From contig CM059452.1 of the NCBI GenBank assembly GCA_030390025.1, forward strand, positions 17,112,001 to 17,176,000: a stretch of 64,000 bases of DNA, in the 5' to 3' direction. The stretch comes from Squalus acanthias (Eukaryota). Both the position numbers and the translations under genes were made by a program. How positions within the stretch are numbered: position 1 is the first letter of the stretch; every line of letters begins with the position of its first letter. Below, piece by piece: positions 8,681 through 13,319 of this stretch. Below the pieces are notes generated by a model. That model was not told where the DNA came from and did no database searches. It saw nothing but the letters and a program-made list of their open reading frames with translations.

Positions 8681-8998
8681 TCGAGCCAGTGAAGCCAAAG
8701 CTCCGCCTCCTGCCTCCATCGCCAGAGGAGATTCAAAGTACGAGCGCCGCTACTCTGACCTGTTTGATAAGAGGATTCTACCCGGACAACATCACTGTCT
8801 CCTGGGAGAAGGACGGAGCTGCTTTGAGCGCGAACGTCACCAGTTCCCCCACTGCTCTTGAACAGGACCAGACCTTCAGCACAAGGAGCCTCTTCACTTT
8901 ACCTTCAGCGGAATGGAAGAGAGGATCAACATACACCTGTGCCGCCTCACATCCACCTTCACAATCCACCGTGAAGGGGGACATCAGCAGCCCGAAAG
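8681..8998 (+). CDS. IgNAR: IgNAR constant exon C3
   Basis: Follows a 75-nt intron; acceptor ttctgttacag|, donor G|GTAGGG; 318 nt, phase 1/1. Encodes VEPVKPKLRLLPPSPEEIQSTSAATLTCLIRGFYPD...YTCAASHPPSQSTVK...SPK. Confidence 0.96.
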
Positions 8999-10525
8999 GT
9001 AGGGACAGTACCTCAAAATGCATTCACACAATCAGCGTTTTGTACTTACATCTAAAGCCAACATTGAACAATGCAGGCCCTAGTGGTCAGATCACTCCAG
9101 GTTACAGGTATAACAAACTCTAGGGACATCAATTAATGCGCCCTTAACTCACAGGCGGCGAGTAGACGATAAAGTGATCAGTGCGCAATATGTGCGCCGC
9201 CACAAGCTATGTGAGGACCAATGGTAAGAAGAGCACAGGATCAGGATTTGCTAACTTCACTGCATGTTACCCTGGTGACCGTGGGCTGTCTTTAAACAGC
9301 AATATGCAGTGGCTAAAGACACAGAGTGTCCCACACTATGTGGGGATTAGACTTTGAATGGTGTTTGCTTCACTCTGCACTTCCTGATTTAAGGCTAGCA
9401 CAACACTGAGTGGTTGCAGGCAGTGAATTAAAAGACAAAAGCAGCCAGTTATCAGGTGGCGCAACCAATTGATGTGAGTAACTTTGTACATTTGAAGTAT
9501 TCAAATCTCTGCACCGCCAGCGTTAGATGTCACAGGAGGAGATAAATAATGTCTTCATGTTCTGAACCCAATTATTTGATCTTCAGTTTTTGATGATTAC
9601 ATTCTCCGCTTCTGTGATTACTTTTCCATCTCCATTTATTTTTATTCAATCAAATCAAAATGTGAGCACAATAATCATCCCAGCACCTCCGTGCGAGGGA
9701 CGGAGAGGCATTCAAACTTCCCTGGATCTTAGGTTGGAACCCCGTTTTCTGCTGAGTTCGTTGATCTCACTTGGTGGCGTCCCGGGCCTTATAATCGGTC
9801 TCAGTGTCGCATGATTCGTTAAATAGCAAAGCCCCTGGTTCCGCTCCTGATCTATGGTAACTGCGCCTGGGATCAATCTGGTGACGACAAGATAGGAGTT
9901 GTCTTCGATGCCCTCGCGGTACAACAGCCTGCTGATACTCATTGTGAACGATGACTCACGCTGCATATTCCATTGGCTGAGGTACCAGAGGGCGACTAAC
10001 AGATCTCATACAGCAGTGAGGAAAGCAAAGGATACAATAGGGCCAATACTGCTGTTAGGCGCAGTCACAGACACTTAATACTCGAGATCCTCCGATTGCT
10101 AAGCAGCTGTTTACTGTAATTCGCGAGCCATGTGCACTAAGAAGCCCCTGTGTTCCGTCGCCGGTCTTTGCTGAGTTAACTGATCTCAACTAGTGGCTTT
10201 TTGGAAGTTGCAGTGGCCTAGGCACATCCGGGTCACTGAGGAGACACCCGTTCTTTTCTCTTCCTCCTGTCTGAGGAGGGCTGGTGGAAGTCGGCGTGTT
10301 GGCACCTGTGCTGAGCGCACGACTGGACGGGGCTCTTTCTGCGGATCCACTAAGAATGGCCGCTTGAGAGAGATACTCAAGGCGACGTTCCTCAGTGGGG
10401 CCTGTACCGGATAACAATAAAACCAGGCATTTAATGAGTACCTTTAAGCGCCTTGTGCCGCTTCACAGAGTTGTAAGGAAAGCGACAGGAAATGAATGTA
10501 AAGTTGCCCATTGTCTTTATTTTAG

Positions 10526-10573
10526 AAGACTGCGGTGAAGATTTCAGTGTTGAAATTAGCCCATTTCCTACAC
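10526..10573 (+). CDS. Candidate IgNAR Cys-containing spacer micro-exon (EDCGEDFSVEISPFPT); read-through to TGA at 10615-10617 gives an alternative tail
   Basis: Strong acceptor ttgtctttattttag|, weaker donor CAC|GTGAAT; 48 nt, phase 1/1. The peptide resembles the C4 N-terminus VDCHEADISVKILNPPF. No transcript evidence is available. Confidence 0.55.
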
Positions 10574-11182
10574 GTGAATATTCTGCTGTTGATTGCTTCA
10601 AATTAGCTCCGTGTTGAAACTCAGTTTACTGTTTAAACTTGTGAAGATGATTGATTTTATTACACTCAGTCATCTGACATTCTCATTACTTCTCACCCTC
10701 CTAACATTTTGATTTACTGCCAAAGGATGGTAATCTTGGGTAATGAAGATATCGCCAAACCCCTTCAAAAGGAGTGATCTTGTAACATACAGTGTGAAAT
10801 ATGTCCCACTGTTTTATGAAGGGGTGGTAACTGAACGCATTTCAATCAGGTATCCCAGTAGAAAAGTACATGTTCATAATGAGAGTCTGGGAGGGGAGAC
10901 AATGGAAGTGATTATAAACAGTCCGGCAACAGTTTCTACAACACTCCCCTACAGAGCATTGGCATCATTGGGAGAAATGGACGAATTTTACTGTAAGATT
11001 AGGAAACAAAGTTACAATGTTGGGCTTGTGCAATTGACACACCACTTTGGTTCACTCTGGGGGTGTTGGGAATTTCAGAGTTGACGTCCTGGGGAATATA
11101 ATGAAGGCGGCTGCTATCATTTTTAGACAAAAATGAGAAGTCGCACAACACCAGGTTATAGTCCAACAGATTTATTTAAAAT

Positions 11183-11218
11183 TACAAGCTTTCGGAGCTG
11201 TCGCCCCTTCCTCAGGTA
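11183..11218 (-). ncRNA. Minimal hammerhead ribozyme motif, antisense copy
   Basis: Exact reverse complement of 11973-12008 in the left PLE arm. Confidence 0.75.
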
Positions 11219-11972
11219 GAGTAGCTGTGAGAGAATCTCCCAGAATTCACAATATAAACACAGAAGAAATGTATTCAAATCTTTCCCTACATCAAAGACA
11301 CACTAAGAGCACAGCCAAGACAATGAGATGTGTCCCAGGGGGTCCAACGTGTCAAAACACCTGCTGGCTGCATATCCTCTGCAGTTGACTTTGGTTCTTG
11401 TGTTAGTTTTCTGTTAAAAAAAGGCTGGAAAGACCGGCCATGATGTCAAGTCACGTTCTGTATCGTGACATGAACCCGATATCGCGATTGAGGCCATCCT
11501 CATGAGTGCGGAACTTGGCTATCAGTTTCTGCTCTATGATTTTGCGCTGTCATGAATCCCGAAGGCCGCCTTGGAGAACGCTTACCCGCAGATCCGAGGC
11601 TGAATGCCGGTAAGCGTTCTCCAAGGCGGCCTTCGGGATACACGACAGCGCAAAATCATAGAGCAGAAACTGATAGCCAAGTTCAGCACTCATGAGGATG
11701 GCCTCAATCGCGATATCGGGTTCATGTCACGATACAGAACGTGACTTGACATCATGGTCGGTCTTTCCAGCCTTTTTTTTTAAACTAACACAAGAACCAA
11801 AGTCAACTGCAGAGGATATGCAGCCAGCAGGTGTTTTGACACGTTGGAACCCCTGGGACACATCTCATTGTCTTGGCTGTGCTCTTAGTGTATCTTTGAT
11901 GTAGGGAAAGATTTGAATACATTTTTTCTGTGTTTATATTGTGAATTCTGGGAGATTCTCTCACAGCTACTC

Positions 11973-12008
11973 TACCTGAGGAAGGGGCGACAGCTCCGAA
12001 AGCTTGTA
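11973..12008 (+). ncRNA. Minimal type I hammerhead ribozyme motif (PLE-associated)
   Basis: TAC-CTGAGGA-A-GGGGC-GACA-GCTCC-GAAA-GCTT-GTA: CUGANGA box, stem II, GAAA box, palindromic AGCU in place of stem III, UH site, and short stem I TAC/GTA. Confidence 0.75.
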
Positions 12009-12998
12009 ATTTGAAATAAATCTGTTGGACTATAACCTGGTGTTGTGCGACTTCTCATTTTTGTCCACCCCAGTACAACGCCGGCATCTCCACATCATGA
12101 TCATTTTTAGAGTAATACATTGAGCTTTTAGTCATTCTTTTAGTTTTTTTGTCATGCATAAATAAAGGAACGATTTGTACATCCAGAGGACCATTTTACT
12201 TTAAAACTGAAGGCATGTTTTCCAATTTCTGGTAGTAATTCGCTTTCAGTTGACAAGGTACGGATACTAGATAAGACTTTCCCACTGTCACTAATGTCAA
12301 TATCGAGCACTTCCGATCAGGTATCTCATGGTAAAACTATAGACTGTCTCACTTTACACTCTTCAAACAATGGTGTCTTGAACCTCAACCTTCACAAGAG
12401 CGCTCCTTCCTAGCCCTGACTGGCAGTTCCTATATTATTTCTAAACACATTCCACTCTCTAAGTGAAACAGCGAAATCGGTCTCAAATGATGCAGAACAT
12501 CTGCAGATTGATGCAGATGCTGATGGCACGTTTCCGTTTATTGGTCGGACCTGGACAAGCTTATTTCAGACCCAACCTTTAGGACTGGAATACAGAGGAC
12601 TTTTAGTCACTTTAGATGAGCTGTATTGGAACCCGCCACATACAGACCACAGGCGCAGCGTTTGGCCTCCAGCATCAGTCAGTCTGATGGGTGAAGATTT
12701 GCAACACGGGAGCGGGGACTATTAGCCCCCATTTAATCCCAGGCAGGGCAATGCTCGAGCTGTGGAATAAATGATCGGAAATTTTATCGAGGACATCATC
12801 CAAAGAAGCCAGAGGGACGAAATCAACGAGAGCAGAAGGGAGGTGTACCATCTTATTAGCTAAGCAAAAATAACCTGAGAAAAGTCATAACTTACTACAG
12901 TAAGTGGAATTTTTTAACATCTCTGTGAGTGTGTTGCATTTGTTGTTACCCGTGGTTTCAACATGACAGTTTGAAATAACCACTCGCTCTTTTTCCAG

Positions 12999-13319
12999 TT
13001 GATTGTCATGAGGCAGACATTTCTGTCAAGATACTGAACCCTCCCTTTGAAGAGATTTGGACCCAACGGACAGCGACCATTGTTTGTGAAGTTGTTTACA
13101 GCGATTTAGAGAACGTCAGCGTGTCCTGGCAAGTGGATGGGAGTCGGAGAACGGATGGAGTCGAGACTCTGACTCCTGAGTGGAGTGGAAGTAAATCCGC
13201 CATCGTTAGCAAACTGAAAGTCACCAGGGCAGAGTGGGAGAGTGGTGTTGAATATCTCTGCTTCGTAGAAGACAGTGAATTGCCAACACCAGTGAAAATC
13301 TCCACCAGAAAAGTAAAGG
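12999..13319 (+). CDS. IgNAR: IgNAR constant exon C4
   Basis: Acceptor ctctttttccag|, donor G|GTAAGC; 321 nt, phase 1/1. Encodes VDCHEADISVKILNPPFEEIWTQRTATIVCEVVYSDLENVSVSWQVDG...EYLCFVEDSELPTPVK; the extra N-terminal Cys is the interchain-linker Cys. Confidence 0.96.

Follow-up and report, generated by a model that had tools for sequence, protein, structure and literature searches.

Head-to-head ends of a Penelope-like element in the C3-C4 intron of a shark IgNAR gene: a probable product of two-strand priming, likely without host function

The 64,000-nucleotide stretch of Squalus acanthias DNA studied here (the window) raises the question of what a long, nearly perfect inverted repeat is doing between two constant-domain exons of an antibody gene, how it was formed, and whether it matters to its host. 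Our study identifies the repeat as a 972-bp insertion (11128-12099) in which the 3' end of a Penelope-like element (PLE) is present twice in head-to-head orientation, the two copies being about 97% complementary, and we regard its identity as an insertion of endonuclease-bearing PLE ends as practically certain. The complete reading, in which 5'-truncated ends of a young PLE were placed in the C3-C4 intron by priming from two strands on RNA of one source and serve no function in the host, is in our judgement probable. The exons on either side of the intron match two solved IgNAR constant domains (4q9c and 2mkl), and the reading frames of C1 to C5 are open; a V-like exon and a J-like segment, recognised by their motifs, lie 2.6-4 kb before the window. 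The hairpin is about 15 kb from the V exon, 2.1 kb from the intron donor and 0.9 kb from the acceptor. The host features are as follows:

8681..8998, plus strand: IgNAR C3 exon (match to 4q9c, E 1.5e-48)
8999..12998, plus strand: IgNAR C3-C4 intron, GT..AG, 4000 nt
12999..13319, plus strand: IgNAR C4 exon (match to 2mkl, E 2.4e-47)

The alignment of the two arms (11126-11590 with 11605-12065), at 96.8%, spans 465 columns and includes 11 mismatches and a single gap of 4 nt, which bears out the near-perfect inverted arms described in an initial annotation of this DNA; eight of the mismatches fall in the arm body, two in the poly-T/A tract and one at the centre. Uninterrupted pairing ends at 11586/11609 and leaves the 22-nt loop that had been described, while beyond a single C-C mismatch three extra pairs can form and 14 nt remain; these three pairs are likely the microhomology by which the arms were joined. 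The right arm extends 34-36 nt past the left one, and this one-sided tail (12064/6-12099), absent from the initial annotation, ends on the first ATG of the element ORF (12097-12099). A search of the same genome with the left flank returned the window and four other IgNAR loci, two of them near-identical and perhaps one locus assembled twice. All four paralogues carry one copy of the repeat running directly into the right flank (exact in two of them, with one and two changes in the others), so 11128-12099 is an insertion with a target-site duplication (TSD), and the claimed 12-bp TSD is confirmed by this comparison with empty sites. The insertion comprises:

11116..11127, no strand: left copy of the TSD, 12 bp, present as the single copy at the empty site in 4/4 paralogues
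11128..11608, minus strand: left arm, a 5'-truncated PLE 3' end antisense to IgNAR and without the tail; it is the longer arm at the centre, and the loop comes from it
11183..11218, minus strand: mirror hammerhead, antisense to the IgNAR transcript
11451..11606, minus strand: left-arm copy of the ORF end, seven codons longer, with one internal stop
11587..11608, no strand: centre loop, 22 nt (14 nt with the three further pairs past the C-C mismatch)
11609..12099, plus strand: right arm, a 5'-truncated PLE 3' end sense to IgNAR, with the tail
11610..11744, plus strand: the terminal 44 codons of the PLE ORF with their stop codon, from the end of the GIY-YIG endonuclease region
11973..12008, plus strand: minimal type I hammerhead with a 5-bp stem II, a 3-bp stem I and a 4-nt palindrome replacing stem III (C3 = 11976, predicted cut after 12005)
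12015..12020, plus strand: AATAAA hexamer in the sense arm, a candidate signal
12064..12099, plus strand: one-sided tail, 34-36 nt, its first 2 nt ambiguous with the TSD
12100..12111, no strand: right copy of the TSD, 12 bp

The parent family is young and abundant. The best 40 of 2940 first-look candidates scored in a genome search with the right arm have 96-98% identity, and in a search with a stretch of the reverse transcriptase (RT) the best-scoring 40 of 1100 candidates were all listed at 100% identity. Two of the four long copies examined (L076 and L077) contain an 892-aa ORF with RT and GIY-YIG regions between partial pLTRs; Pfam recognizes RVT_1 in it (E 2.3e-8) and, in its C-terminal piece only, GIY-YIG with 22.6 bits, exactly the cutoff. 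The plus-strand remnant in the window is identical to the C-terminus of this full-length element at 43/44 residues, in agreement with the GIY-YIG remnant that had been proposed, and the minus frame does run through the loop as claimed, reading HSASDLRVSVLQGG and then a stop. In L075, L076 and L077 a 5' partial pLTR is joined to the ORF start in partial-tandem arrangement, and in the full-length copies the tail of this pLTR ends on the first ATG. A CX4CX2C linker motif precedes the GIY-YIG motif (in the frame of L002); this motif defines the Neptune/Nematis type and is absent from Penelope/Poseidon according to the part of PMC8557442 that treats it. As read from the sequence, the linker motif, taken alone, points to a family of Neptune/Nematis type. 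A Poseidon-type label, which would place the family in the Penelope/Poseidon clade, was dropped on account of the same motif.

The layout is a published PLE signature, an inverted truncated copy with about 35 nt of tail on one side only. The legend of Fig. 2 in PMC8557442 describes the insertion unit of EN+ PLEs as an inverted 5'-truncated copy with a one-sided 30-40 bp tail and a TSD, and Pen2a_Av is an example among the elements that PMC3846280 presents. The window insertion shares with the units described there the head-to-head arms, the single tail, the TSD, the hammerhead in the pLTR and the pLTR ending at the ORF start; it differs from them in having only 44-51 terminal ORF codons and a TSD of 12 bp. 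The insertion is therefore real, ordinary and of a known kind, and the view that a PLE with inverted pLTR segments has inserted into an IgNAR intron is supported. What does not hold is the impression of a special locus, since the inverted layout is the norm of the family: among 76 distinct copies taken from the best-scoring candidates mentioned above (40 from the right-arm search, window included, and 36 further ones from the RT search), a non-random sample, 50 have a head-to-head inverted partner and 26 have no inverted arm, not even a short one when short arms were sought in those 26. The tail is on exactly one outer end in 46 of the 50 inverted copies (two have none and two run off the fetched locus), a TSD of 11-15 bp was found in 40/48 of them, and the centre junction has an overlap of 1-6 nt, measured from BLAST ends, in 36/50. 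Individual copies differ in where their arms start and in their centres, with arm-start offsets that reach more than 1 kb; because the centres differ, the hairpin is not a mobile unit in itself. A MITE or a fold-back DNA transposon that moves as one unit was ruled out, as neither centres nor terminal repeats are fixed.

Counts from this young and abundant family bear on how PLEs acquire their inverted ends and one-sided tail; what our study adds is the family tail count, the test for a shared source, the comparison with empty sites and the ribozyme masking described below. First, the position of the tail: the arm that carries it is the shorter one in 27 pairs (the window insertion among them), the longer one in 15, and one of two equal arms in 2. 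Second, the source of the arms: of 811 family-polymorphic non-CpG sites compared between the two arms of the same insertion, 15 differ, against 11626 of 30156 such sites (39%) between insertions, and because source variants are common to both arms we conclude that the arms have one source. Later gene conversion is a minor contributor, because private changes in the 42 insertions are mostly confined to one arm (91 on one arm versus 16 on both). As far as sequence can tell, shared variants would be expected equally from one RNA, from two RNAs of one master locus, or from a fold-back. Third, the outer ends: the bases with which the RNA would continue match into the TSD for at least 1 nt at 33/38 tail ends and 34/38 short ends (4/42 insertions were dropped for want of an anchor or TSD), where we estimate the chance expectation at roughly a third; the matches have mean lengths of 2.6 and 1.9 nt, respectively, and reach 8 nt, and the shuffle control for them, to which we give no weight, is partly circular in that the boundaries are themselves defined by homology. 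The TSDs of four copies (L031, L038, L039 and L051) share their first 8 nt with the RNA segment that directly follows the tail. Such 8-nt matches suggest that pairing with the RNA may help to choose the insertion site. Counting against pairing between RNA and target at the start sites, the initiation site of a Poseidon element is reported as non-homologous to the cut DNA in the relevant part of PMC11167929.

The account that we favour, with somewhat better than even confidence and on evidence read entirely from finished insertions, is two-sided priming from both nicked target strands. The element protein would nick the two target strands 12 nt apart. Each 3'-OH would form a few base pairs with the RNA, at one or other of two start sites that are separated by about 35-40 nt; the start site at the ATG of the ORF would yield the tail, and the second would lie upstream of it. 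Both cDNAs would halt early and be joined at their 3' ends through short complementarity of a few bases, and fill-in would then produce the hairpin and the TSD. LINE-1 twin priming offers a parallel, in that cDNA synthesis on the RNA is primed by both nicked strands of the target and microhomology joins the products; there, however, the second primer starts internally and the two pieces do not overlap, whereas in the PLE model both cDNAs start near the 3' end and overlap over their full length, which is why a hairpin results. Two-sided priming is also consistent with experiments on a PLE of Anolis, whose protein, in the results reported in PMC11167929, cleaves and extends both strands, uses two start sites that bound the tail, and was modelled as a dimer. 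An in vitro system in which this account, with RNA of one source and short pairing between target and RNA, could be put to the test already exists. In the literature covered, largely freely accessible papers, we found no printed twin-priming model for the inverted ends of PLEs.

The main alternative, which we consider unlikely, is a self-priming fold-back, in which the cDNA (or an antisense template) copies itself and an endonuclease trims the hairpin ends, leaving the tail on one side. It would explain equally well that the arms share source variants, and a 3-bp fold-back closing a 14-nt loop is one way to draw the centre; moreover, self-priming is proposed in the Discussion of PMC3846280, and PMC8557442, in the corresponding passage, attributes the tail to resolution by the endonuclease. 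However, a copy cannot hold a tail that is missing from its template, yet in 27/42 pairs it is the shorter arm that has one, and a trim of fixed geometry would always place it on the same arm. Simple fold-back is thus disfavoured because the shorter arm often holds bases that its supposed template is without, and the tail placement counted here speaks against both the self-priming and the endonuclease resolution invoked in those two papers, as far as their cited passages go. The homology between target and RNA at both outer ends and the arm-start offsets of more than 1 kb are further points against it.

Returning to two-sided priming, the closest experimental reference is the Anolis carolinensis Poseidon element PAc (PMC11167929, to the extent described in its main results). 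The shark family shares with it the RT and C-terminal GIY-YIG, two end positions that bound the tail, an AT-rich target, and a hammerhead near the ORF start. Unlike PAc, it has the CX4CX2C linker motif of the Neptune/Nematis type, its hammerhead precedes the ATG by about 90 nt instead of overlapping it, and its ends show the short target-RNA homology that the same part of the PAc paper reports as absent. Inverted insertions are not discussed in that part of the PAc paper.

Our RNA evidence on IgNAR consists of contigs only, from eight runs presumed to be RNA, and most of them stem from other copies and paralogues. The initial annotation had placed the hairpin between a micro-exon and C4; instead, C3 is joined directly to C4 across the 4000-nt intron in contigs of 4/4 runs, no micro-exon was seen among the 15 of 69 contig joints displayed (a rare isoform may exist), and a simple acceptor-donor scan upstream of the insert gave no micro-exon candidate. 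The literature covered yielded no usable account of IgNAR splice forms or switch regions. At 21 exon and intron sites where the RNA contigs differ from the window, their letters match the paralogue L101 (G000:C29, about 16.72-16.73 Mb) at all 21, L102 at 16, and L099 and L100 at 14 each; this comparison lists differing sites only and is silent for or against transcription of the window locus. L101 carries a LINE-type RT fragment in its C3-C4 intron (window-equivalent 9838) and, as assembled, a frameshift in C3; L102 has a frameshift in C2.

If the hairpin did act on IgNAR, this would be through double-stranded RNA that is edited or diced so as to alter splicing or output, or through cruciform or hairpin DNA attacked by AID or nucleases, and we judge such an effect quite improbable. 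ADAR acts on long RNA duplexes, and the long dsRNA that had been anticipated from the IgNAR pre-mRNA is indeed predicted by folding (a duplex of about 460 bp, -894 kcal/mol); processing of the hairpin by ADAR or Dicer is plausible if the intron is transcribed. The open C1-C5 frames and the V-like and J-like segments upstream also favour an effect, as does the report that inverted repeats with a 12-bp spacer break in yeast (PMC8053094, in the part concerned with spacers); the same part reports that fragility drops steeply, without vanishing, at spacers of at least 9 bp, and the centre here has 14-22 nt with mismatches. Against an effect, the insertion is absent from 4/4 paralogues, it is distant from the splice sites and from V, and the arms of the family drift through ordinary C>T/G>A changes (108 of 149, with A>G plus T>C accounting for 10). 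We found no excess of A-to-G changes in the family arms and no cluster of them in the window that would mark a genomic editing scar; any editing would be a passive property common to many family copies. The density of AID hotspots (WRCY/RGYW) is no higher in the insert than in the rest of the intron (53 versus 56 per kb), while AGCT alone is at 6.2 versus 2.7 per kb, with few counts. From the sequence, attack by AID on a cruciform at the hairpin remains a weak proposal. Because the insertion is absent from 4/4 paralogues and its arms are about 1.8% apart, the data are consistent with a neutral insertion after the paralogue duplications, and it is very probable that it has no selected host role.

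The hammerheads proposed in the initial annotation require a separate judgement. Rfam gave no hammerhead among its seven matches at E<=10, and its miRNA matches, which are below gathering scores, reflect the hairpin; a hammerhead descriptor did find both cores (11973-12008 on the plus strand and 11183-11218 on the minus strand), so that the part of the claim that stands is one core in each arm. The descriptor gave 128 matches in 476,956 bases of loci chosen for this family and none in one shuffle. In 21 aligned motifs of 31 distinct ones the core is invariant (21/21), variation is found at N7 and in loop 2, and the palindrome of 4 nt retains its self-complementarity (21/21; one of the ten left out breaks it), with a GC-to-CG swap in a second family. 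It is important to note that pairing of stems I and II is demanded by the descriptor, so their 100% pairing is not independent, and that most two-sided stem changes come from three related sequences. The metazoan PLE minimal hammerheads shown in PMC4209133 share the core boxes, the extra base before stem II, the G10.1-C11.1 pair and the palindrome in place of stem III, and hammerhead pairs on opposite strands 100-700 bp apart are noted there as well; the shark candidate, with a stem I of 3 bp and a stem II of 5 bp, is shorter than the Schistosoma example given there.

The part of the claim that does not stand is that of twin ribozymes acting together, the cores being on opposite strands. That the two would dimerise and cut the IgNAR pre-mRNA is very improbable, even though the motif is a true minimal hammerhead whose palindrome is conserved and such motifs are thought to work as dimers, the monomers showing no cleavage in vitro (PMC4209133, in the passages on their activity). 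IgNAR sense RNA carries only the right core, which is predicted to be paired with the left arm, and a cis dimer is therefore unavailable. In folding of the lone arm, stem II has a probability of 0.98 and stem I of 0.01; in the full hairpin the probability of stem II falls below 1e-17 and that of pairing between the sense core and the left arm is about 1. Even unmasked, a single minimal hammerhead would be expected to stay inactive on the evidence of those passages, and the Anolis hammerhead required the element protein (PMC11167929, in its ribozyme results). One of nine tandem dimers tested did cleave, in a different layout, according to the available part of bioRxiv 10.64898/2026.07.22.740005. 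Whichever strand is transcribed, the antisense arm would come first, pair with the sense arm and mask both the hammerhead and the AATAAA, and the intron would then be spliced out as a long duplex. This predicts that PLE hammerheads in head-to-head insertions are silent in host transcripts.

A broader proposal, which we put forward as speculative and rather improbable, is that self-masking head-to-head PLEs are tolerated in introns from which lone sense copies are purged, and are a main source of intronic long dsRNA in sharks. If true, the antisense arm made first on either host strand would zip up the ribozyme and the putative poly(A) signal; and with about two thirds of a family thousands strong in head-to-head form, such insertions would be the shark equivalent of Alu pairs, here within an antibody gene.

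That the hairpin is an artefact of assembly or read fold-back is extremely improbable, for although long palindromes are error-prone to assemble and its presence was judged from an assembly, 11 mismatches and a gap distinguish the arms, only one of them has the tail, the TSD agrees with the empty sites, and the geometry is common to 49/75 other family copies.

Other features of the locus were also observed. A 1.14-kb stretch (9195-10332), containing a 37-nt degenerate direct repeat, is present in four IgNAR loci and missing from one paralogue (L025/L102); it has 13 matches, seven of them to its final 150 bases, and is not a high-copy repeat. On either side of the insertion (10734-11081 and 12162-12722) there are open frames of 116, 83 and 101 aa, which may be chance or an old remnant. 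Pfam gave no match for the short ORF remnant of the window or for five flanking open frames, and the 116-aa frame (10734-11081), which is also open in the paralogues L099 and L100, yielded 156 candidates and no match among longer proteins. A further fragment resembling this PLE end lies upstream of the V exon (L103:3754-4044). One RNA contig omits about 48 nt (window-equivalent 11170-11217) between a pair of short CAG repeats, a segment that includes most of the hammerhead, and probably derives from a deleted copy elsewhere in the genome. Finally, the last third of the window, from about 41800 to 64000, is occupied by a long, degenerate, satellite-like array.
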